Assembly: GCA_964506575.1 (NCBI GenBank)
Contig: CAZDLY010000003.1
Coordinates: 41,240 to 105,239 of the forward strand
Direction: 5' to 3'
DNA from: an uncultured Akkermansia sp.
Lineage (GTDB): Bacteria; Verrucomicrobiota; Kiritimatiellia; RFP12; JAAYNR01
DNA: 64,000 nucleotides
The first letter of the stretch is position 1. Each line of letters begins with the position of its first letter. Position numbers and translations under genes: made by a program. This document shows, piece by piece, positions 12,528 to 58,313 of this stretch. The notes under the pieces were generated by a model. That model had not been told where the DNA came from. It saw only the letters and a list, made by a program, of their open reading frames with translations, and made no database searches.

Positions 12528-12737
12528 TCTCTCACCCGCGGGGGCGCATCCCCGTTTCACTGACTTGCGCATGAAAAGCAAGGTAGGGCGGGGCCGCCGG
12601 ACCCGCCGCTGGCTTGCGGCGCTGCGACGAGCACGCTCGCCGCAGAAGACGGCGGGTCCGGCGGCCCCGCCCTATCTTCGCCGCTGTGATCCATTGGTCG
12701 CAAGGTCAGTGAAACGGGGATGCGCCCCACCCGCGGC
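12528..12737. repeat. Nested palindrome at the duplication junction (30-bp arms CCGCGGGGGCGCATCCCCGTTTCACTGAC/reverse complement, with an inner GGCCGCCGGACCCGCCG/CGGCGGGTCCGGCGGCC pair)
   Basis: Outer arms at about 12531-12560 and 12700-12733, inner arms at about 12592-12608 and 12650-12666. It lies between the paralog B stop and the exbD relic and is a likely strong hairpin/terminator. Confidence 0.5.
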
Positions 12738-28289: not shown

Positions 28290-28585
28290 GTGAACCTCGT
28301 TAAAATGAAGGCACAGCATAACGAAAGCTGCGGCGGAAAACAAGCGCCGCGTGGACCCGGTCAGGGCAAACGCATCTAAATTCAGCTTCTTTTTCATTTG
28401 CATAGGTTAGTTGTTAACAGCGTCTAAAAGGCAATCGGGGTCAGCGCGCGGCGGGTAGGGCTTCGCGCTTTTCCTTTGACATTCGCCCTTATCCTTCGGC
28501 GCGGCGGGACGCCGCCGCCCCCGCTTTCGCGCTTTCCCTGTCGCCAGCTACTGGCGATTTTCTCTGACACCCCCAATATCTTGAT

Positions 28586-28633
28586 CGTCGTCGTCCTCGT
28601 CCTCGATTTCACGATTCGAGGACGAGGACGATG
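28586..28633. repeat. Hairpin built from GTCCTC hexamer repeats (tcgtcctcgtcctcg-loop-cgaggacgaggacga)
   Basis: Perfect 15-bp inverted repeat with an 11-nt loop, upstream of the hypothetical gene at 29221. Confidence 0.7.
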
Positions 28634-28742
28634 TCTCAATCCTGCTTCCCATCCGGACGCAAGCCGGCGGTCCGACTGAACGCTGAACCCTTCTCTTCCC
28701 GTTTTCTACCACACCCCAATTATTGACCCATTGAGGAGGCGT

Positions 28743-28850
28743 ATGGCAGTTCTGATGAGGGTCGTTGATCCGTAATCTTAATCGTAATCGTAATCCGTTT
28801 TCCAACAGGAGATTAAGATCAGGATTAGGATTAAGATGGCAATAGCCCTT
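28743..28850 (+). repeat. Structured repeat element copy 1 (CGTAAT hexamer arrays in inverted orientation) beginning with a mini-ORF MAVLMRVVDP
   Basis: A GAGGAGG RBS sits 4 nt upstream of the ATG at 28743, encoding a 10-codon ORF. This is followed by cgtaatcttaatcgtaatcgtaatcc ... ggagattaagatcaggattaggattaag. It is related to the element at 30303-30443 and shares the ATGGCnGTTCTGATGAGG start. Confidence 0.6.
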
Positions 28851-28959
28851 TAACTTGGCGCCATTCAGACCCGTCTCTTGCCGATCTTCGTTCGAATGGT
28901 CTCCATGCTGGTCGGATTGTTGGCGGAAGAGAATGAGAAAGAACGAGCACTGTAAAATC

Positions 28960-29115
28960 GGGGTCGGGGTCGGTATCGGTATCGGGGTCGAAAGGGAACG
29001 GCGTCGTAGCGATGCTCACAAAACTCGGGCAACGGGGATATGCGGTTCACGAGGAAAACGGAAGCGTACCGGACGAATCAAGTCGACCCCGATACCGATA
29101 CCGACCCCGACCCCG
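28960..29115. repeat. Perfect 30-bp inverted repeat of hexamer units (GGGGTC GGGGTC GGTATC GGTATC GGGGTC ... GACCCC GATACC GATACC GACCCC GACCCC) separated by about 93 nt
   Basis: The arms at 28960-28989 and 29084-29113 are exact reverse complements, immediately upstream of the GGAGGCGGGC RBS of the gene at 29221. Confidence 0.7.
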
Positions 29116-29220
29116 ATGGTCCCATCTCCAAAATTAGAATGGCTGCGGACTCTTCTTCTCTTCTTGAGGCCGTCCTCCTGTTGGGGTATACTATTACCGT
29201 CGAACCAGCGGGAGGCGGGC

Positions 29221-30279
29221 ATGGAAAAGAAGACCACAGACAGAGGACGCATCGCGGGGGCGCCGGTCTCCGCGTGGCGGCGGCTGTACGATGTGGCCGC
29301 CCGCATCCGGGCCCTGGATCCGTGGCCGTGGATGAACCTCGGACACGTGTTCGGCGTCCAGCCGCACGGGTCGGCCGGACCGGGATTCGTGCTGTTCTCG
29401 GAGCAGGGCGATCCCCCGCGGCGCGCCGTCTCGGTCTATCCGGGCTGGGCGCCCTTCCGCGACGCGATCATGAGCCATGCCCACCCGGACGGACGGGCGC
29501 CGCTCGAGCGGACGGTCGAGGAGTCGTGGCTGCGGCTGATGTTCCTGCCCCAGGCCGGCCTGGGCCGGGGCGACCGCGCCGTGCTGGTCCGGCTCGGATG
29601 GGATCTGACGGGGGCGGACGAGTTTCCGGCGTTCTGCAGTCAGAAGGTGGGCTATTTCCCGGACCGGCTCGGGCCCTCCGAAGTGGTCTGGCTCCACGCC
29701 GTCCTCTATCAGGCCTATGGCATGGCCCTGCGGGTCGAGACGGCGCCCGACCTCACTCAGGAGCGGATGCCGCGAACCTTCCTGGTGCGGATGCAGGACG
29801 CCGCGGGCGGCTGGCGCGACGCCTGGGTGGACGAGCCGGCCGCGCGCACCGACGTGGACGTGAGCATCGACCTCGACCGCGTGCGGCGGGTCCGGTGCCA
29901 CCCGGCCGGCGCCGCCGTGCTGCAGGCCGATCTGGTGCTTTCGCCGCTCAAGATGAAGAGTGCCGAAGACCACCGCTCCGAGGCGGTCTTCACCCTGCTC
30001 CTGGTCAATGGCGAAACCCGCGTGATCATCCGCTGCGACGCGATGCAGGCGACCGAAGGGATCGAGACGATGTGGGCGCAGGTGCCCGGCGCGGTGCTCC
30101 GGGGCCTGGAGCAGCTCGACGCGCTCCCCGCCGTGATCGAGGTGCGCAGCGAACGGATGCTGAATGTGCTGCGCCCGCTCACCGAGCTGCTCCCCTTCAA
30201 GCTGACGCGGCGCGAGAACCTCGACGCCCTGGCCGTCGCTCGGGATTCGCTGAACGATCTGCTGCGCGTCAAGACCTGA
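29221..30279 (+). CDS. Hypothetical protein (352 aa) bracketed by hexamer-repeat hairpin elements
   Basis: ATG at 29221 with a strong GGAGGCGGGC RBS. The upstream in-frame extension of ORF 28855..30279 only translates the repeat DNA (GVGVGIGIGV, IPIPTPTP). No recognisable domain. Confidence 0.65.
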   Translation: MEKKTTDRGRIAGAPVSAWRRLYDVAARIRALDPWPWMNLGHVFGVQPHGSAGPGFVLFSEQGDPPRRAVSVYPGWAPFRDAIMSHAHPDGRAPLERTVEESWLRLMFLPQAGLGRGDRAVLVRLGWDLTGADEFPAFCSQKVGYFPDRLGPSEVVWLHAVLYQAYGMALRVETAPDLTQERMPRTFLVRMQDAAGGWRDAWVDEPAARTDVDVSIDLDRVRRVRCHPAGAAVLQADLVLSPLKMKSAEDHRSEAVFTLLLVNGETRVIIRCDAMQATEGIETMWAQVPGAVLRGLEQLDALPAVIEVRSERMLNVLRPLTELLPFKLTRRENLDALAVARDSLNDLLRVKT

Positions 30280-30302
30280 GGGCGCGTGCAGAACCTCCGG
30301 GC

Positions 30303-30443
30303 GCATGGCCGTTCTGATGAGGTCGTTGATTCGTAATCATAATCGTAATCATAATCGTAATCCATTCTCCGCCAGGAGATTAAGATCAAGATTACGATTA
30401 CGATTACGATTACGATTAAGGAGTAACCCTCATCAGAACTGCC
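30303..30443. repeat. Structured repeat element copy 2: long imperfect hairpin (GTTCTGATGAGG..CGTAAT/CATAAT arrays..loop..ATTACG x5..CCTCATCAGAAC)
   Basis: Outer 12-bp stem GTTCTGATGAGG/CCTCATCAGAAC plus about 40-bp inner stems of hexamer repeats. It lies between the convergent genes at 29221 (+) and 30448 (-). ORF 30305..30649 merely reads through it. Confidence 0.65.
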
Positions 30444-30447
30444 CGCG

Positions 30448-30789
30448 TCAATCCGGGTGCCGCGCACAGGCGACGGCGGGTTCGCCCACGGTGCCCGCGA
30501 TGGTGTACGCAGTGTTGCCCGCCTTGCAGAGGGGGATCTGGCCTGTCTTCGCGTATTCACCCAGGGCTGCCGGGTCAATCGCGTCGCCGGGCCCCTTGCT
30601 CGCAACCAGCGCCCACTGGCTGATCATGTCTTGGATCAGACGACGATGATAGAGGCACAGAGTGCGCTGGGTGTTTTCGCGCGCGCGGAGCAGGTTGGGG
30701 GCCACGATCATCGACAACAGGAACAACAGCGCGACCACGATCATGATCTCGATGAGCGTGAAACCGCCTCTGGCCATCAACCGTTTCAT
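30448..30789 (-). CDS. Prepilin-type N-terminal cleavage/methylation domain protein (pseudopilin-like)
   Basis: 113 aa from the ATG at 30789 (AGAGGGG RBS). N-terminus MKRLMARGGFTLIEIMIVVALLFLLSMIVAPNL with a GFTLIE prepilin motif. Confidence 0.75.
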   Translation of the reverse strand: MKRLMARGGFTLIEIMIVVALLFLLSMIVAPNLLRARENTQRTLCLYHRRLIQDMISQWALVASKGPGDAIDPAALGEYAKTGQIPLCKAGNTAYTIAGTVGEPAVACARHPD

Positions 30790-30982: not shown

Positions 30983-31384
30983 TCAGGGCATGGGGAGGCC
31001 GCCTGAATTGGTGACGGTCCCGGTATTATGATCGGTAGCGCTCGACGTGCACAAGACCCAGGGGCCCTGGACTGTTCCACCCAAGGTGTAGTCCTTGTTG
31101 CCCGTCTTGCACGTGGGCATTGCACCGCCCTTGATGTAGGCGGCGATTGCATTCGTGTTGGTATCTCCATTTCCCTTGACGTCTGCCGTCGCATCCTTGT
31201 TATCGGCCAGCGCCCACTGGTCAATGGCGTCGTAGATCAGACGCTTGTTGTTATTGCAGGTGCTCTTCTGCGTCGATGTGCGAGCCTTGATCAGGTTCGG
31301 CACGGCAATGACCGCCAGCAACGCAATGATCGCGACAACGATCATGATTTCGACAAGCGTGAAACCTTTTCTGTTGATCTTCAT
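30983..31384 (-). CDS. Type IV pilin-like / pseudopilin protein (copy 1)
   Basis: 133 aa from the ATG at 31384 (GAAGGA RBS). MKINRKGFTLVEIMIVVAIIALLAVIAVPNLIKAR prepilin N-terminus. Identical to the protein at 31638..32039. Confidence 0.8.
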   Translation of the reverse strand: MKINRKGFTLVEIMIVVAIIALLAVIAVPNLIKARTSTQKSTCNNNKRLIYDAIDQWALADNKDATADVKGNGDTNTNAIAAYIKGGAMPTCKTGNKDYTLGGTVQGPWVLCTSSATDHNTGTVTNSGGLPMP

Positions 31385-31576
31385 GATGTGAATCCTTCTT
31401 TTTTTGCTCCCGTTCAACCCAGCACGTAGTGCCGTGTGCGCAACCACGCGCTCTCCTTTTACGCCCGACTGTCAACTAACCGCCCCGGAATGAGACGATC
31501 CAATCGAGCCTTCGGGTATGATTGTAAGCCGAACTCACGCCAAACACAAGAAAATAGTTATCCGGAAAAAATAATA

Positions 31577-31637: not shown

Positions 31638-32039
31638 TCAGGGCATGGGGAGGCCGCCTGAATTGGTGACGGTCCCGGTATTATGATCGGTAGCGCTCGA
31701 CGTGCACAAGACCCAGGGGCCCTGGACTGTTCCACCCAAGGTGTAGTCCTTGTTGCCCGTCTTGCACGTGGGCATTGCACCGCCCTTGATGTAGGCGGCG
31801 ATTGCATTCGTGTTGGTATCTCCATTTCCCTTGACGTCTGCCGTCGCATCCTTGTTATCGGCCAGCGCCCACTGGTCAATGGCGTCGTAGATCAGACGCT
31901 TGTTGTTATTGCAGGTGCTCTTCTGCGTCGATGTGCGAGCCTTGATCAGGTTCGGCACGGCAATGACCGCCAGCAACGCAATGATCGCGACAACGATCAT
32001 GATTTCGACAAGCGTGAAACCTTTTCTGTTGATCTTCAT
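31638..32039 (-). CDS. Type IV pilin-like / pseudopilin protein (copy 2, 100% identical to copy 1)
   Basis: 133 aa identical in sequence. It is part of a roughly 478-bp exact tandem repeat (30923-31400 and 31579-32056) with a 656-bp period. Confidence 0.8.
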   Translation of the reverse strand: MKINRKGFTLVEIMIVVAIIALLAVIAVPNLIKARTSTQKSTCNNNKRLIYDAIDQWALADNKDATADVKGNGDTNTNAIAAYIKGGAMPTCKTGNKDYTLGGTVQGPWVLCTSSATDHNTGTVTNSGGLPMP

Positions 32040-34758: not shown

Positions 34759-34795
34759 GCCCGAGCCGCCTGCATAACCCTGTTTTACAGGCGGA

Positions 34796-34972
34796 GTGTT
34801 CAGGTTTCAGGTTTCAGGTTTCGGGTTTCAGGTTTCGGGTTTCAGGTTTCGGGTTTCGGGTTTCGGGTTTCAGGTTTCAGGTAGTAGCTCGCTCAACCAC
34901 AGTGAGTTGCGCGTTTTCTGAAACCTGAACACTGAAACCTGAAACCGGCGCTTGCAAGGGTTTGCAAGCGCC
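34796..34972. repeat. Heptamer tandem array (GTTTCAG/GTTTCGG x about 12) followed by the partial inverted complement (TGAAACC x4) and a GGCGCTTGCAA-GGG-TTTGCAAGCGCC hairpin
   Basis: Direct repeats at 34796-34882, complementary units at 34918-34946, and the REP-like palindrome at 34947-34972, immediately after the TauE stop. Confidence 0.75.
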
Positions 34973-34977
34973 TCAGC

Positions 34978-35120
34978 CCTTGTTATCAAGCACTTATCAA
35001 CAGTTGATAACAAGTTATTCATAACTATATAAACTATTGCATTGCAGATACTTAAGATGTTATAAATTTGTTCGTAACCTGTCAGTTCGCGGGTTGTTGA
35101 TAACGTGATGATAACTCGTT
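34978..35120. promoter_or_regulatory. AT-rich island (about 30% GC) with multiple TTATCAACA / GTTGATAA palindromic motifs; candidate operator cluster for the downstream XRE regulator, or a DnaA-box/DUE-like element
   Basis: cttgttatcaagcacTTATCAACAGTTGATAAcaagttattcataactatataaactattgcattgcagatacttaagatgttataaatttgttcgtaacc...ggTTGTTGATAAcgtgatgataactcg. There are two exact TTATCAACA motifs and two near-matches flanking an AT-rich stretch. Confidence 0.45.
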
Positions 35121-35858: not shown

Positions 35859-35990
35859 GAGGCGCTTGCAAGAGAGGAGTCAGGAGTCAGAATACAGGAG
35901 TCAGAATAATCGAACACCCATTCTGAATACTGAATACTGGCTTCTGAATACTGCGCTTGCAAAACCGACGAAGGAGGTTTTGCAAGCGCC
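35859..35990. repeat. REP-like element: GGCGCTTGCAA, then heptamer repeats (GAGTCAG/AATACAG), their inverted complement (ATTCTGA/ATACTGA), then the GCGCTTGCAAAAC-12 nt-GTTTTGCAAGCGCC hairpin
   Basis: Sits exactly between the convergent XRE gene (stop 35858) and the 637-aa membrane protein gene (stop 35991) and is a probable bidirectional terminator. Confidence 0.7.
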
Positions 35991-37904
35991 TTATGGACCA
36001 CGCTGCCAGGTGAGGATGGACAGGTTGCCCTCTTCCGCCAGCTGGGCGAGGCGCGTCTGGAGGGCGGCATCGAGCGCTTCGTCGCGGTCCCAGACGATGA
36101 GGAGCGTCCGCTTTGAGACGGCGCCCGACTGGCGGCGCTCGCTCATGATAACGGCCATATCCTCGAGCATCGCGCGGCAGGGGGCGTCACCGCTGATGAC
36201 CGGAACGTAGCGGCCGAACCACGCGGCGTCGAAGGCGAACTCGCTGCCCGTCGGCAGCCTCGCCGCGCCATAGCGGAGGATCGGCACGCGCCACAGCGGA
36301 ATTTCGGCGAACGTGATTTTTCGCTCGCCGCGGCGGAGCAGGCGGACATAGCGGACCAGTTGCGGCGGCCAGGTGATCACTCCCTTGCCCAGCCACAGGC
36401 CCCCCGCGCCAAGCCCGCGCAGCCGCGCGCGGGTCCATCGGCCCAGGCGCGCCAGCGCGCGGGGCAGCCCGCGAAGCAGGACGGCTTCCCGGTCATCGAG
36501 CCACCGCGCGACGCGGGCCAGCCCCCGAGCCACGGCGCCCCGATGCTGCCACAGCCGCGGACCCAGACGCGCCAGCGCCAACGCCAGGGCCGCCGTTCCC
36601 ATCCAGAGGCTCCGTCCGGCGCCAGCCAGCCGCCGCGGGAGGGGCTGGCCGGCCGCCGCCCCTGCGGTTGCCCGGCTCAGACCGTCGTCCGGCCGCTTGG
36701 ACTGCCGCCCCAGGAACCGGGACAACTCGCCCAGTATCCGCTGCACATGATCATCCATCCGCTCCAGGAAGCGGGTTGTGACCTCCACACGCCGATGCCA
36801 CGACGGCGCGATCCGGCTCCACAGACCCGTCGCGAACCGGGCGCTCCGCGCGAGCCTCTCGCCCAGGGCCTGCCAGCGCCGCCGCAGATAAGCCCCGGCC
36901 TGGGGCCACACCGTGTCGGCATGGTCTCCGAACCACGGAATGAACAGGGAGAGCCGTGACACGGCGGACTTCGACGCCCAGAGCGGGCGCCGGCCGAAAT
37001 AGATCACGTTCTCGCCCTTGCGGATCGCGCGTCCGAGGAAGGCTTCGGGAGGCGCATACGGCTCGTCGCCCGGCCGCAGCGTCTGCGTGGGTCGCTTGGG
37101 CGAGAACGCATCGATCGACCCGCCCGACAGCGGCAGCGGCCACCACGTGTTCCACGGTGCGTTAAACGTCACGACGTAATTCCACAGGAGCGTCATCACT
37201 GCGGCGATCAACACCAGATTGATCAGCATCCGGGAGAGGCGATGGATCTGGCGGACGACGCGAAGCTGGGCCTCTTTCATGTAAACCACTTTTTTCTCGT
37301 GAGCCAGCCCCTCAGCCTCCGCGTCTGACCCCCCATTCTCGTCGAGCGACACCGGAGCGCCGGCGCCGTCCACCTGATTCGTCCCCCGGACCTTGGCCAC
37401 CTGATTCGTCCCCCGGACCTTGGCGCCCGGCTGGGTCGCGCCCGGAACGGTGCGGCTCTTTTTGCCTCTCTCGCGCCAGGTTGGCGTCGTCCCGGAATAG
37501 CCGCCCTGCACGAGATCCTCGGGAGTATCCTCCGCGAAGGTCACTCCGGCGGCGAGATCTTTCGTTTTTTTGGGGGTTGCGGCCGCCTCATCGCCGGTTT
37601 CGGCGTTCGGGGTCTGTTCCGCGGCGGCGGCCTCATCCGCCTTCTCTTCGGCTTCCAGCGCTTTCTCCGCCGCCATCTGTTTCCGCATCTCTTCGGCCCG
37701 GTCGAGTTTGATCCCCGAGAACCAGTAATCGTTCTTCAGTCCATAGAGCATCGAGGCGAGCAGCGCCAGCCCCACGGCGAGCAGGTAGACGCGCGGCCGC
37801 GAGGCCTGGCGCATCACCCGCACGAGGACATAGAGAGACCCCGCCCAGGCGATGAGCGCCAAGGCCCCCAGCAGACCCGTGTAGGGGAAGAGTTTGTCGA
37901 TCAT
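35991..37904 (-). CDS. Hypothetical membrane protein (637 aa)
   Basis: ATG at 37904 overlaps the upstream stop (ATGA). N-terminal TM helices, a central Lys/Ala/Glu-rich charged segment and a hydrophobic middle region. Last gene of cluster 2. Confidence 0.65.
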   Translation of the reverse strand: MIDKLFPYTGLLGALALIAWAGSLYVLVRVMRQASRPRVYLLAVGLALLASMLYGLKNDYWFSGIKLDRAEEMRKQMAAEKALEAEEKADEAAAAEQTPNAETGDEAAATPKKTKDLAAGVTFAEDTPEDLVQGGYSGTTPTWRERGKKSRTVPGATQPGAKVRGTNQVAKVRGTNQVDGAGAPVSLDENGGSDAEAEGLAHEKKVVYMKEAQLRVVRQIHRLSRMLINLVLIAAVMTLLWNYVVTFNAPWNTWWPLPLSGGSIDAFSPKRPTQTLRPGDEPYAPPEAFLGRAIRKGENVIYFGRRPLWASKSAVSRLSLFIPWFGDHADTVWPQAGAYLRRRWQALGERLARSARFATGLWSRIAPSWHRRVEVTTRFLERMDDHVQRILGELSRFLGRQSKRPDDGLSRATAGAAAGQPLPRRLAGAGRSLWMGTAALALALARLGPRLWQHRGAVARGLARVARWLDDREAVLLRGLPRALARLGRWTRARLRGLGAGGLWLGKGVITWPPQLVRYVRLLRRGERKITFAEIPLWRVPILRYGAARLPTGSEFAFDAAWFGRYVPVISGDAPCRAMLEDMAVIMSERRQSGAVSKRTLLIVWDRDEALDAALQTRLAQLAEEGNLSILTWQRGP

Positions 37905-56195: not shown

Positions 56196-58313
56196 TCATA
56201 AGAAACCTCGCTTGAGAACCACGCTCAACACTGCCAGATCGGCCGGCGTCACGCCGGGAACACGGCCGGCCTGGCCCAAATTGACCGGACGCACCCGGCT
56301 GAGCTTCTCCCGGCACTCATACCCCAGCGCCGGGATCTTCCCATAGTCCACCCACGACGGGATCACATCGGCCTCCATCCGCAACGCCCGCTCCGCCTGC
56401 CGCCGCTCCTGCTCGATGTACCCGCGATACGCGATTTCCAACTCCACCTGTTCGACAACGACCGCGGGAAGCGCGGGATCGGCACACGGCAGATCCGCAT
56501 ACCGCGCCCCGGGGCGGGCCAGATGCCGCGACGCCGCGGCGCCATCGGCGAGATGACGTGCATCGAGCCGCGCACATTCAGCCGCGATCAACCGGGCATA
56601 CCGCTCCGTCTCATCCCGAAACACCGGATCGGCCAGCCCCAACCGCTGCGCATGGGCAAGCATCCGAAACCGCGCATTGTCCTGCCGCAGCAACAGCCGC
56701 CGCTCCGCCCGCGACGTGAACATGCGATACGGCTCGTTCGTCCCCTTCGTCACCAGATCGTCAATCATCACGCCGATGTACGACTCCTGGCGGCCGAGCA
56801 GCAGCGGATTCTCATCCCGGACACGCATCGCCGCATTGACTCCGGCAACAAAACCCTGGGCCGCCGCCTCCTCATAACCGGTCGTGCCGTTAATCTGCCC
56901 CGCAAAGAACAAGCCCGCATGCCGTTTGGACTCCAGCCCGTGCGTCAGCTCGCGGGCGTCGATAGCGTCGTACTCGATCGCGTAGGCGTACGCCAGAAAC
57001 CGGGCCTGCTCCAAACCGGGTATCAGCCGGACCAGACGCTCCTGAACCTCGCGAGGCAGGCTGTTGGATATCCCGTTCGGGTAAATCCAGGCTGAGTCGC
57101 CCCGCCCCTCAGGCTCCAAAAAGACATGATGGCTCTCCTTGTCGCCAAATTTGACGATCTTGTCCTCCAGCGAGGGGCAATACCGCACCCCCGTCCCGCT
57201 GATCCCGCCGCCATACAACGCGCTGCGCGCGAGGTTTTCCCGAATCACCTGATGACAGGCGGACGTCGTGTGGGTCAGCCAGCAGGAGACCTGCCGGGCG
57301 CCCCCCAGGACGCTATCGTGTGGCGGGCTGATGCCAGCCGCGCGATGATCCGCCGCTGGCGACTCCGGATACGCCCTGTTCCACGTGGAACATTCATTCG
57401 GCGCTCCGCCGCGGCTCGTCTCCGAGCCCGGGCACACATCCGCCGCTGGTGACGACGGGAACGCCGTGTTCCACGTGGAACATTCACCCGGCGCCCCGCC
57501 GGGGTCCGTCTCCGAGCACACATCCGCCGCTGGCGTCGCCGGGAACGCCCTGCTCCGCGTGTAACCATCGGCCCGCGCTGCCCGCACACGCGCGCCACGC
57601 CACGAAAAGAGCGGCGGCGGCTCGTCGCCCGCCTGCTCCTGGGTCTGGCAAAAATCAATGGAGGCCGGGTCGAGGCGCGGGGGTGTTCCGGTTTTCAACC
57701 GAAGCCTTTCATATCCGGCGTCGCGCAGGCTATCGGAGAGGGCCTGGGCGGCGGCGCGCCCGTCGCCTCCGCCCGGCGAGACCTCATGCCCGACATGAAT
57801 CGCCCCCCCCAGCGCCGTCCCGGTTGTCAGCACGACGCAACGACCGGCGATGCGCCCGTGTCCGGCTGTCTCGACGCCGGCCAGCCGCCGCTGCGGTCCG
57901 GTGTCCGCAAAGGCCAGCGCGATGACCTCATCCTCCATCACCCAAAGATTCGGCGTGGATTCGACGACCGCCCGCAGGCGCGCCGTGTAGGCGGCCTTGT
58001 CGCATTGCACCCGCGTGGCCCGCACGGCGGGGCCGCGGCTTACATTGAGCACCCGGAACTGGATGCCGGTGCAATCCGCGTTGAAACCCATCTCGCCGCC
58101 CAGTGCATCCAGTTCATAGACCAAGTGGGATTTAGCCAGGCCGCCGATGGCCGGGTTGCAGGGCATTCGACCGATCGCGTCTCGGTGAGCGGTGATCAGC
58201 AGGGTTTTGCAGGTCATCCGGGCGGCGGCAAGCGCCGCCTCGGACCCGGCATGTCCGCCGCCGACGACAATCACATCCCACCCGTCCCCGCTGGTCCGAC
58301 CGATGCTTTTCAT
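56196..58313 (-). CDS. mnmG: tRNA uridine 5-carboxymethylaminomethyl modification enzyme MnmG (GidA), carrying an internal minisatellite-encoded insertion of about 90 aa
   Basis: GidA signatures ([38 protein letters not shown]-terminal [14 protein letters not shown]). Start at the ATG at 58313. Residues encoded at about 57348-57567 are 2.5 tandem copies of an 87-nt unit. Confidence 0.92.

Follow-up and report, generated by a model that had tools for sequence, protein, structure and literature searches.

BOX, repetitive extragenic palindromic (REP/REPIN) and Correia-type repeats of bacteria are short, abundant, hairpin-forming and intergenic like the elements described here, BOX with a variable number of an internal module of 45 nt; REPINs depend on REP-associated tyrosine transposases (RAYTs) and make no target duplication. 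The short tandemly repeated repetitive (STRR) heptamers of cyanobacteria are comparable intergenic arrays of short units. To our knowledge, none of BOX, REP/REPIN and Correia-type repeats has microsatellite arms or a four-helix bundle (4HB) gene as cargo. Mobile insertion cassettes (MICs) are element copies with a passenger gene (PMC4337579, PMC6199540), a usage that some of the copies presented below fit. The 23S rRNA intervening sequence of Coxiella has been described as selfish; RNase III cuts its terminal stem of 28 bp, the loop of which holds an S23p open reading frame (ORF). It is of unknown origin, transposition being one hypothesis, and for intervening sequences as a whole the question has been open since about 1990, with transposition a hypothesis only (PMC4990558). 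In Xanthomonas, GGGAATC arrays, usually four units long, form inverted pairs near gene ends and are transcribed, and heptamers are over-represented in Nostoc, the function of these arrays being unknown (PMC4692102). We have analyzed a stretch of 64,000 nt (the window) from contig CAZDLY010000003.1 of an uncultured Akkermansia sp. placed among the Kiritimatiellia, in which a first-pass annotation had described four hairpins built from tandem hexamers, here called elements 1 to 4, around a hypothetical gene, which has DUF7309 and DUF6930 domains.

We consider it very likely that the region 28560-30445 consists of a resident DUF7309/DUF6930 gene, with small non-autonomous mobile elements having settled independently in the intergenic regions on its two sides. 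The four hairpins with hexamer arms are present where they had been described and fold far better than shuffled sequence (plus strand, elements 1 to 4: z = -8.0, -2.6, -9.6 and -11.1), and four independent assemblies agree on their sequence without any difference. Contigs of three other samples (L001-L003) encode the exact product of 29221-30279 and are 99.0-99.6% identical to the window overall, with 58-79 differing positions elsewhere and none in 28400-30500, so that unit-number variation within this population was not visible. The perfect stem attributed to element 1 was confirmed and measures 16 bp; likewise, the arms of element 3 are exact reverse complements, 91 nt apart, the unit order GGGGTC GGGGTC GGTATC GGTATC GGGGTC of one arm being mirrored exactly in the other. 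The features of the region are as follows.

28468-29146, no strand assigned: block between ileS and the DUF7309 gene in which repeat elements are nested or lie side by side, delimited by comparing the intergenic regions of the window and of locus L112
28584-28633, no strand assigned: element 1, TCGTCC/CGAGGA hexamer arms (16-nt arms 28591-28606 and 28616-28631, 100% complementary)
28634-28700, plus strand: non-repetitive 3' flank of the element-1 family (GATGTCTCAATCC..CCATCCGG..GCCGGC..), conserved beside the hairpin in L087 and L074
28737-28760, plus strand: left terminal inverted repeat of element 2 (first copy of the mobile family), AGGCGTATGGCAGTTCTGATGAGG, with 2 mismatches to GGGCGCATGGCAGTTCTGATGAGG; holds the ATG of 'MAVLMR'
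28771-28837, plus strand: inner hairpin of element 2, with left array CGTAAT/CTTAAT (28771-28795), tip (28796-28809) and right array GATTAA/GATCAG/GATTAG (28810-28837)
28846-28872, plus strand: remnant, recognised by eye, of the promoter-like region before the 4HB gene, CCCTTTAACTTGGCGCCATTCAGACCC; L066 has a similar stretch at this position, and L096 and L099 have one upstream of the ATG of their 4HB gene
28896-28955, plus strand: 3' remnant of the 4HB gene (blastn, tblastn), its last 19 codons, MVSMLVGLLAEENEKERAL, with stop TAA at 28953-28955
28957-29117, no strand assigned: element 3, GGGGTC/GGTATC arms (28957-28991 and 29083-29117, 35/35 complementary) around a 91-nt loop
29118-29150, plus strand: GGTCCCATCTCCAAAATTAGAATGGCTGCGG, terminal repeat at the right end of the element-3 family (consensus ..CCATCTCCAAAATGAGAATTGCTG); 60 nt at 93% in L036 and L040, 53-54 nt at about 92% in L061 and L054
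29164-29192, plus strand: host promoter-like TTGAGG-17-TATACT of the DUF7309 gene, outside the elements and conserved in L112
29221-30279, plus strand: DUF7309 + DUF6930 gene (Pfam match), a resident gene and not cargo
30280-30298, plus strand: 19 nt, GGGCGCGTGCAGAACCTCC, also missing from the empty site of L112; possibly, and with uncertainty, a terminal-repeat fragment of an earlier event
30299-30447, plus strand: element 4, second and short copy of the mobile family, 149 nt, 88-94% identical to L036, L040 and L059

Elements 2 and 4 belong to one family. Element 4 runs from a left terminal repeat (30299-30322, one mismatch) through the linker TCGTTGATT, a left array (30331-30362) and the tip CCATTCTCCGCCAGGAG to a right array (30378-30418), GGAGTAAC and a right terminal repeat (30428-30447) without the ATG and with a degenerate end; its outer stem, GGCCGTTCTGATGAGG/CCTCATCAGAACTGCC, pairs 30307-30322 with 30428-30443. 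The terminal repeat of the family is matched at 23/24 positions by the left end of element 4, whose right end is 3 nt short, and at 22/24 by element 2, which has the left end only. The arms of element 2 are 86% complementary over 21 nt, and its inner hairpin is 86-92% identical to the corresponding parts of element 4. For the string GGCNGTTCTGATGAGG, 0.17 occurrences are expected in the window and three are found. As the first-pass annotation had remarked, CUGAUGAG is not a hammerhead core: no hammerhead match was obtained in 28400-30600 at E up to 1 or in the window at gathering score, and GUAA stands in place of GAAA. Rfam gave nothing at gathering scores in the whole window, where there is no rRNA, and for 28400-30600 at E up to 1 returned weak microRNA and sRNA chance matches only (E 0.15-0.8).

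The idea of a mobile family resembling MITEs (miniature transposable elements with inverted repeats), one of several put forward for these hairpins, was borne out by terminal repeats, 9-bp duplications, dozens of copies, an insertion sequence (IS) with the same ends, nested insertions and empty sites. The search for further copies that had been proposed as a check recovered about 85 dispersed loci in metagenomes and in metagenome-assembled genomes (MAGs) of the Planctomycetes-Verrucomicrobia-Chlamydiae (PVC) group, so the elements are not locus-specific. A scan of metagenome contigs with the query GTTCTGATGAGG(N)TCGTTGAT yielded 40 loci, about 36 of them true members, and a scan of genomes (one per species) with the 20-mer GCATGGCAGTTCTGATGAGG of the terminal repeat yielded 52, of which about 35 lie in a single MAG and 5 in a Kiritimatiellia MAG from the lake series of the window's samples. 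The MITE-bearing Lake Mendota MAGs are labelled Kiritimatiellia, and further hits come from Lentisphaerae, Verrucomicrobiia and Terrimicrobiaceae MAGs. At least five of the 52 genome hits are apparently chance matches in unrelated taxa (L052, L062, L073, L094; the degenerate hairpin of L064 aside), which leaves about 47. Many genome hits are located at contig ends, as expected of a repeat that breaks assemblies.

The left end of the family has the consensus GGGCGCATGGCAGTTCTGATGAGG-TCGTTGATT-(CGTAAT/CATAAT)n and the right end (GATTAA/GATTAC)n-GGAGTAAC-CCTCATCAGAACTGCCATGCGCCC, a member thus comprising a 24-nt terminal inverted repeat, asymmetric linkers, opposed hexamer microsatellites (NTAATC)n/(GATTAN)n and a variable centre. 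Pairing of forward and reverse ends defined 32 distinct elements of 39-2369 nt (39-711 nt for those without transposase), and the 24-nt consensus is present at both ends of 30 distinct copies, 13 of which are flanked by a 9-bp direct duplication with at least 8/9 positions matching (for example TAGCGATTT, ATGCCGCCA and GGTGATCTG); several further copies are compatible with a duplication that is shifted or 8 bp long. In L028, the element of 2,369 nt consists of a MITE into which an unrelated IS1634-family element has inserted, and other nested insertions place a heptamer hairpin inside a MITE array (L055) and a GTCCTC hairpin inside the member at L069. Two identical 2,037-bp elements, terminal repeats included, in L080 and L088 have the same 24-nt ends, with complementarity extending to about 55 nt, and encode a 456-aa protein that scores 207.1 bits against the NCBIfam ISKra4-family cut-off of 205; the L088 copy is flanked by a 9-bp duplication, TGCAAAAGA. 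Since ends and duplication length are common to this autonomous insertion sequence and the small elements, the latter are MITEs by definition.

The family combines terminal inverted repeats, a duplication of fixed length, ends in common with an autonomous element, and small size, absence of transposase and many copies; presence/absence polymorphism is described below. It resembles the MITEs and MICs of known bacterial insertion sequences in having ends identical to those of an autonomous insertion sequence, a fixed 9-bp duplication, no transposase, many copies and short deletion derivatives, and differs from them in its ISKra4-family partner, in the opposed hexamer microsatellites of its interior with a several-fold length variation, and in its passenger, a 4HB gene for a '23S rRNA intervening sequence protein'. 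No description of a MITE of the ISKra4 family was found in the literature, as far as our incomplete search coverage goes. The elements are a new family, whose microsatellite arms and cargo are a new variation on the known MITE/MIC theme. Beside these results, we observed that MAGs labelled Lentisphaerae and Verrucomicrobia contain identical copies of the ISKra4-family element (transposase 456/456), which would mean either a very recent transfer or faulty binning or labelling. Another dispersed repeat of about 110 nt (..GAGAGCGGTGTCGCGCGGAATACCGCTTGCCACCGCACTCCAAAATGGCTGGCGCGGCGTCCCGAAGCCCTCCGTCCCGGCGGCAGC..), in one to three tandem copies, replaces the 4HB gene in the MITEs L004, L010, L014, L070, L006 and L093, and a stretch related to it lies at 28493-28539 of the window.

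Comparison with relatives at the locus, another of the proposed checks, showed that L112 keeps the gene without the elements. Orthologs of the DUF7309/DUF6930 protein are found at 86%, 74% and 66% identity, with the ileS and pilin neighbours retained in the 86% (L112) and 74% (L116) loci; the gene order VTT-domain gene, ileS, DUF7309 and pilin is common to these two and the window, and the nearest named relative of the gene carries the label Lentisphaerae. Downstream, the stops of the DUF7309 gene and of the convergent pilin gene are 6 nt apart in L112 (TGAGGGGCGTCAATCC) versus 168 nt in the window, 149 of which are element 4. Upstream, the 679 nt of 28468-29146 correspond to 17 nt in L112, ATGTGCTGCCGTCGCAC, between common flanks (...GGGTAGGGCTTCGCG and GGACTCTTCTTGAGGCC...), and on both sides of this block, which contains a short dispersed repeat, elements 1 and 2, the 4HB remnant and element 3, the window aligns with L112, the promoter-like site and gene leader included. 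The spacer of L112 has repeats of its own (a GGGTTCA x4 array) at another position than those of the window, and the spacer of L116 holds an element-3 family member with both termini and one arm triplicated. The two intergenic regions flanking the gene have therefore been colonised independently and repeatedly, the 'bracketing' of the gene is a coincidence of two permissive intergenic regions, and the gene, given its preserved synteny and its 86% ortholog without elements, is resident and not an acquired cassette delimited by insulator or terminator hairpins, as had also been proposed. Nor are hairpins of this design tied to the DUF7309 gene: since two heptamer hairpins built alike stand elsewhere in the window (34799-34946 and 35875-35958), they are a property of the genome. 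Convergent inverted arrays of a 6-8-nt unit in intergenic position are thus found in all four elements and in these two.

Two other origins were considered for the arrangement. A composite transposon, with elements 2 and 4 mobilising the gene between them, was rejected as no copy of the gene turned up away from its syntenic locus; the outer ends of both elements are 18/18 complementary because both are near-consensus terminal repeats. An integron gene cassette was rejected as well, since the ends GTTCTGA...TCAGAAC lack the GTTRRRY core of an attC site (RYYYAAC ... GTTRRRY) and since both the promoter of the gene, which is its own, and its synteny are conserved.

The first-pass annotation had noticed neither the cargo gene of the family nor the presence in the window of further families built on the same plan. 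In L029, L039 and L041 (566-578 nt), the arrays enclose a promoter-like TTGCTTTGRCC...TACACT followed, about 10 bases on, by the ATG of an intact 135-aa ORF, the stop of which is the TAA of the first GATTAA unit in the 3' array. At E below 1e-5, more than 8000 proteins are homologous to it, every one carrying PF05635 ('23S rRNA intervening sequence protein'; the sources name them 'four helix bundle protein'), and the best 120 of these are all at least 75% identical, which is the pattern of a multi-copy mobile gene. Most homologs end ...D, and a few read through GATTAC units to ...SDYDYDYD. One homolog at 83% identity (P0044) occurs in ten different contigs inside a sister element that has the same arrays and promoter as the MITE family and another terminal repeat, GGGCGCATATGACCTCCATAGGGG; hence, the array-gene-array core is a persistent unit with exchangeable transposon ends. 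In shorter MITE copies the 4HB gene is absent or replaced by nested small repeats. An intact passenger ORF, as in a MIC, is found in L029, L039 and L041; in the window, element 4 has no ORF and element 2 has a 19-codon remnant.

Element 2 (28737 to about 28872, with the gene remnant reaching to 28955) is a longer copy than element 4 and a decayed one. It is not a hairpin standing by itself, as it continues into this remnant (28896-28955), 32 nt of which match the 4HB 3' region in the MITE copies L029, L026, L039, L041 and L042 at 94-97% in blastn; in tblastn, 13 aa match at 77%, with E = 0.47 when taken alone. That element 2 might instead be a complete MITE with CCCTTTAACTTGGCGCCATTCAGACCC as a variant right terminal repeat, also seen in L066, was set aside, though not with full certainty, since CCCTTTAACTTGGCGCCATTCAGACCC precedes the 4HB ATG in L096 and L099. 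A layout of 5' array, complementary array, promoter, 4HB gene and second complementary array recurs at 28771-28955 of the window, in L096 (1040-1680) and in L128 (445-1006); it is known from PVC elements and Gemmatirosa, and its 5' array could pair with a near or a far partner.

These elements share with the 23S intervening sequences bearing S23p/4HB ORFs of Leptospira and Coxiella (PMC4990558) a 4HB ORF in the loop of a long terminal-repeat stem, a sporadic distribution and a suspected selfish nature. The long stems are present in the window, with a remnant of the PF05635 ORF, which is found whole only in relatives. They differ in that the window copies are intergenic, and not in helix 9, 25 or 45, with the ORF absent or reduced to a remnant, and in the transposon ends and target duplications of the PVC elements, for which we found no report in intervening sequences.

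Elements 1 and 3 are members of other dispersed families of the same build, as are two heptamer hairpins further downstream; all have homologs elsewhere in which non-repetitive parts are conserved and unit numbers differ, and all are probably ORF-less relatives of 4HB cassettes.

34762-34990 (arrays 34799-34946), plus strand: heptamer hairpin TTCAGGT/TTCGGGT x12 versus CTGAAAC x4, with termini GAGCCGCCTGCA.. and ..TTGCAAGCGCCTC
35860-35995 (arrays 35875-35958), plus strand: heptamer hairpin AGGAGTC/AGAATAC versus TTCTGAA/TACTGAA, with GAGGCGCTTGCAA termini

Homologs of element 1 occur with its 3' flank in L087 and L074, as the hairpin alone in L078, and nested in the MITE of L069, and the hairpin has four units per arm in L087 versus two in the window. 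The element-3 family (L036, L040, L068, L007, L010, L004 and L116) measures about 130 nt and is bounded by terminal repeats of its own, CAGCAATTCTCA... and ...GAGAATTGCTG, the loop being about 20 nt long; the window member lacks the left terminus CAGCAATTCTCA.. and has the loop of 91 nt. An arm-loop junction, TCGAAAACC, is common to this family and to L007, where it leads from the 5' array to the 4HB ATG, which suggests that the element-3 family may be an ORF-less derivative of a 4HB cassette like that of L007. Both heptamer hairpins are bounded by GAGSCGCTTGCAA-type termini, themselves small hairpins, and one relative of the 34762-34990 hairpin lies inside the MITE hexamer array in L055, another adjoining a MITE in L072. 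The 17-mer GGAGTCAGGAGTCAGAA (window 35876-35892) recurs without a difference in plasmids of Nostoc punctiforme and Aulosira (L121:543; L127:557), in the array that immediately precedes the 4HB start, an identity between a PVC genome and Nostocales plasmids that hints at a possible transfer of the cassette between phyla.

As three PVC element types have the cargo gene between complementary arrays, we looked at 4HB genes of annotated plasmids, located by tblastn (16 loci, within L119-L135). The hosts sampled included Nostoc, Calothrix, Anabaena, Picosynechococcus, Geminocystis, Stanieria, Leptolyngbya, Aulosira, Gemmatirosa and Azospirillum. Directly before the start and after the stop of the gene, 12 of the 16 loci (from Cyanobacteria, Gemmatimonadota and Azospirillum) have arrays of 7-8-nt units complementary to each other; two have direct arrays (Pseudanabaena L126, Oscillatoria L135) and two are unclear (L124, L130). 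The units are listed below.

Nostoc punctiforme, Calothrix: GGGTGTG (5' arm) / CACACCC (3' arm)
N. punctiforme, second gene in L129: GAAGTCG (5' arm) / CGACTTC (3' arm)
Anabaena sp. 90: GGTGACA (5' arm) / TGTCACC (3' arm)
Nostoc ATCC 53789, Geminocystis: GGGAAAA (5' arm) / CCCTTTT type (3' arm)
N. punctiforme, Aulosira: CAGGAGT (5' arm) / ACTCCTG (3' arm)
Gemmatirosa (octamer): GGCAGGAG (5' arm) / CTCCTGCC (3' arm)
Azospirillum lipoferum: CAGAGGA, CGGAGGA (5' arm) / complement (3' arm)

One of these loci, on plasmid AZO_p2 of Azospirillum lipoferum 4B (L133, 14007-15130), is a genuine, classical 23S rRNA intervening sequence: its 4HB ORF lies inside 23S rRNA (Rfam LSU, 486 bits), within a stem of 36 nt that is 86% complementary and composed of tandem units of about 7 nt (CAGAGGA/CGGAGGA). 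In 100 kb of the N. punctiforme plasmid pNPUN01 (135000-234999; L129, L136), Tandem Repeats Finder (TRF) detected 11 short-period arrays, of which the six best (4.3-5.7 copies, 76-96% matches) are all next to or inside its two 4HB genes; 50 kb of pNPUN01 without a 4HB gene gave four weak unpaired arrays only. Across 18 cassettes, 499 of 593 positions form Watson-Crick pairs between the arms despite unrelated unit sequences, which suggests that arm complementarity as such is generated or selected. Mismatches of the G.U and A.C types on the sense strand number 29 versus 28 in these cassettes, with no pointer to RNA or DNA. Some 4HB cassettes lie inside operons, between cas6 and cas4, cmr2 and cmr3, and hsdM and hsdS (L096).

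Going by this modest sample, and with somewhat more doubt than confidence, the 4HB gene may travel generally as an array-closed cassette, to which transposon ends are here attached, a link between 4HB genes and tandem-array hairpins of which we found no description in the literature within a search of incomplete coverage. The window sequences share with the inverted heptamers of Xanthomonas and Nostoc the intergenic 6-8-nt units, the convergent pairs capable of forming stem-loops, and a unit number varying between relatives; in contrast, the latter were described as G-quadruplex-forming simple repeats with no link to a gene or transposon (PMC4692102), whereas here hexamers occur too, the units are mostly not G-rich and the ends are defined. 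Tentatively, and with some inclination to doubt it, we propose that the window hairpins, the STRR-type heptamer arrays of cyanobacteria and the stems of ORF-bearing 23S intervening sequences might belong to one old, widely transferred class of selfish cassette, a 4HB gene between complementary microsatellites, of which ORF-less hairpins would be the abundant relics and which in the PVC group would have been fitted with ISKra4-type ends.

The arrays themselves vary considerably: among the copies counted, an arm has between 3 and about 19 units, and the two arms are often very unequal (about 3 versus more than 20 in L005). One arm is mostly GTAATC or ATAATC, and the other, read on the same strand, TTAATC, GTAATC, TTGATC or CTAATC, so that in most MITE copies five of every six arm positions pair and the sixth is a mismatch. 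All hexamer arrays seen fit the pattern (NNNTCG)n / (CGANNN)n, including CGTAAT/GATTAC, GGGGTC/GGTATC, TCGTCC/CGAGGA and NNATCG (L007, L019), and in the frame of the 4HB gene the pattern reads Asp/Glu-X; the 53%-identical 4HB gene of L007 ends ...GDPDPDSDLDE..., encoded by its own 3' array. Slippage accounts for the length variation of the arrays, not for the existence of the design.

Some further observations were made in and around the locus. The leader upstream of ileS (GGCACAGCATAACGAAAG.TGCGGCGGAAAACAAGCGCCGCGTGG; window 28310-28365, L112:4680-4740, L116:4610-4660) is conserved at all three divergence levels, and its window copy had no match in Rfam. Two tandem pseudopilin genes with an N_methyl motif (30983-31447 and 31638-32039) encode identical 133-aa products and sit in a duplication of about 655 nt, the copies of which are slightly different between samples. 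Between two genes at 12541-12728, inverted repeats are nested, 24 nt at 100% complementarity (140 nt apart) around 29 nt at 97% (41 nt apart), and at 57348-57565 a 90-nt tandem repeat of 2.5 copies (81% matches) contains the palindrome TGTTCCACGTGGAACA.

With respect to mechanism, an ISKra4-family DDE transposase supplied in trans would cut at the terminal repeats, integration producing the 9-bp target duplication; it is presumably the transposase of L080 and L088 that moves the elements. Once inserted, the arrays would change length by slippage, and the short MITE copies would have lost the 4HB gene or never had it, the window copies now probably being neutral relics. The complementary arms might matter as structure, most likely as an RNase III-type stem by which the cassette, like a 23S rRNA intervening sequence, would be cut out of host transcripts. 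Several facts weigh against this account of the locus. Neither window copy has a recognisable target duplication and the ends of both are damaged, so that their transposition is deduced from the family. Among the window and all fetched loci, the ISKra4-type element was seen only in L080 and L088, identical in two MAGs, and neither in the window nor in the fetched loci of the MITE-rich MAGs, and its assignment as partner rests on common ends and equal duplication length. As this insertion sequence has no hexamer arrays, recognition by the transposase does not explain them, and nothing beyond slippage accounts for their origin; moreover, free slippage does not predict the perfect, order-preserving 35/35 arms of element 3, which call for recent arm-to-arm copying or selection for pairing. 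Finally, a 4HB origin of elements 1 and 3 rests on the TCGAAAACC junction, the periodic (NNNTCG)n pattern and co-occurrence, and no continuous series of intermediates leading to them from 4HB cassettes was found.

The hairpins could also be RNA elements akin to 23S intervening sequences, with RNase III cutting the array stem and the cassette or its relic being excised, a possible but rather doubtful explanation that is compatible with the MITE reading and may explain the hairpin design. It would agree with the enclosure of 12 of the 16 plasmid 4HB genes by inverted tandem arrays, with the genuine intervening sequence of L133 and its stem of ~7-nt units, with arm complementarity kept (499/593 in 18 cassettes) as units differ by cassette, and with the S23p ORF in the loop of the RNase III-cut 28-bp stem of Coxiella (PMC4990558); in addition, removal at the RNA level would matter for the many cassettes within operons (cas6/cas4, cmr2/cmr3, hsdM/hsdS). 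However, the balance of G.U and A.C mismatches (29 vs 28) favours neither RNA nor one strand, many MITE copies have very unequal arms with a mismatch at every sixth position, and the arrays of two cassettes (L126, L135) are direct and not inverted. It is unlikely that the tandem units are instead protein-binding sites, one per unit, for the pentameric 4HB protein of the element or for the transposase, in the manner of the subterminal repeats of some eukaryotic transposons. Arrays do accompany 4HB genes across phyla, those beside intact genes often have about 4-6 units (4.3-5.7 in N. punctiforme; 5 per arm in element 3), and Avd, a related protein of diversity-generating retroelements, is a nucleic-acid-binding pentamer; nevertheless, unit sequences are wholly different between cassettes with related proteins, arms of the copies counted range from 3 to about 19 units, and the ISKra4 element has no arrays.

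A role of the hairpins as host regulatory structures for the DUF7309 gene and its neighbours, whether bidirectional terminators, mRNA stabilisers or a leader-peptide attenuator, is very improbable. The position of element 4 exactly between the convergent stops 30279 and 30448, with no other terminator-like site found nearby, would suit a terminator, and the GAGGAGG and ATG in element 2 would suit a leader peptide. Yet at the 86% ortholog these convergent genes are only 6 nt apart and the upstream block is missing from an otherwise conserved promoter region, and the same elements stand beside unrelated genes in dozens of loci. With regard to the mini-ORF highlighted by the first-pass annotation, GAGGAGG (28734-28740), the ATG at 28743 and the 10 codons of MAVLMRVVDP can indeed be read, but the 'conserved start' is merely terminal repeat: in the family, the ATG (bases 7-9 of the repeat) is preceded by GGGCGC and the variable target duplication, with no ribosome-binding site. 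Because copies differ in frame by a 1-nt indel after GAGG (GAGGTCG versus GAGGGTCG), conservation of the peptide stops at MAVLMR, and the attenuator falls with it. As for locus-specific low-complexity DNA or an assembly artefact, simple repeats do assemble poorly and many family members lie at contig ends, but with four identical independent assemblies, no difference from L001-L003 in 28400-30500, and homologous elements with conserved non-repetitive parts at about 85 other loci, an artefact is excluded and this explanation as a whole can practically be dismissed.

Taken together, the hairpins around the DUF7309 gene are transposon litter and neither a regulatory device nor the boundary of a cassette, and the gene should be annotated as resident with its own promoter. 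More broadly, 4HB genes tend to lie between complementary tandem arrays in every phylum sampled, which offers a testable account of some heptamer arrays of the Nostoc type and perhaps of those of Xanthomonas. Members of this family have been reported in rRNA insertions of candidate phyla radiation (CPR) bacteria (bioRxiv 10.1101/2024.02.27.582315) and in cas loci, where they were read as possible functional partners (PMC3936711); the 4HB genes in cas and restriction-modification operons may be mere insertions, and caution is advisable over such functional-partner readings. If true, a single cassette class would explain the origin of intervening sequences and many of the enigmatic 6-8-nt intergenic arrays, and the ISKra4-type ends of the PVC elements would give direct evidence, in the form of target duplications and empty sites, of how such a cassette can move.

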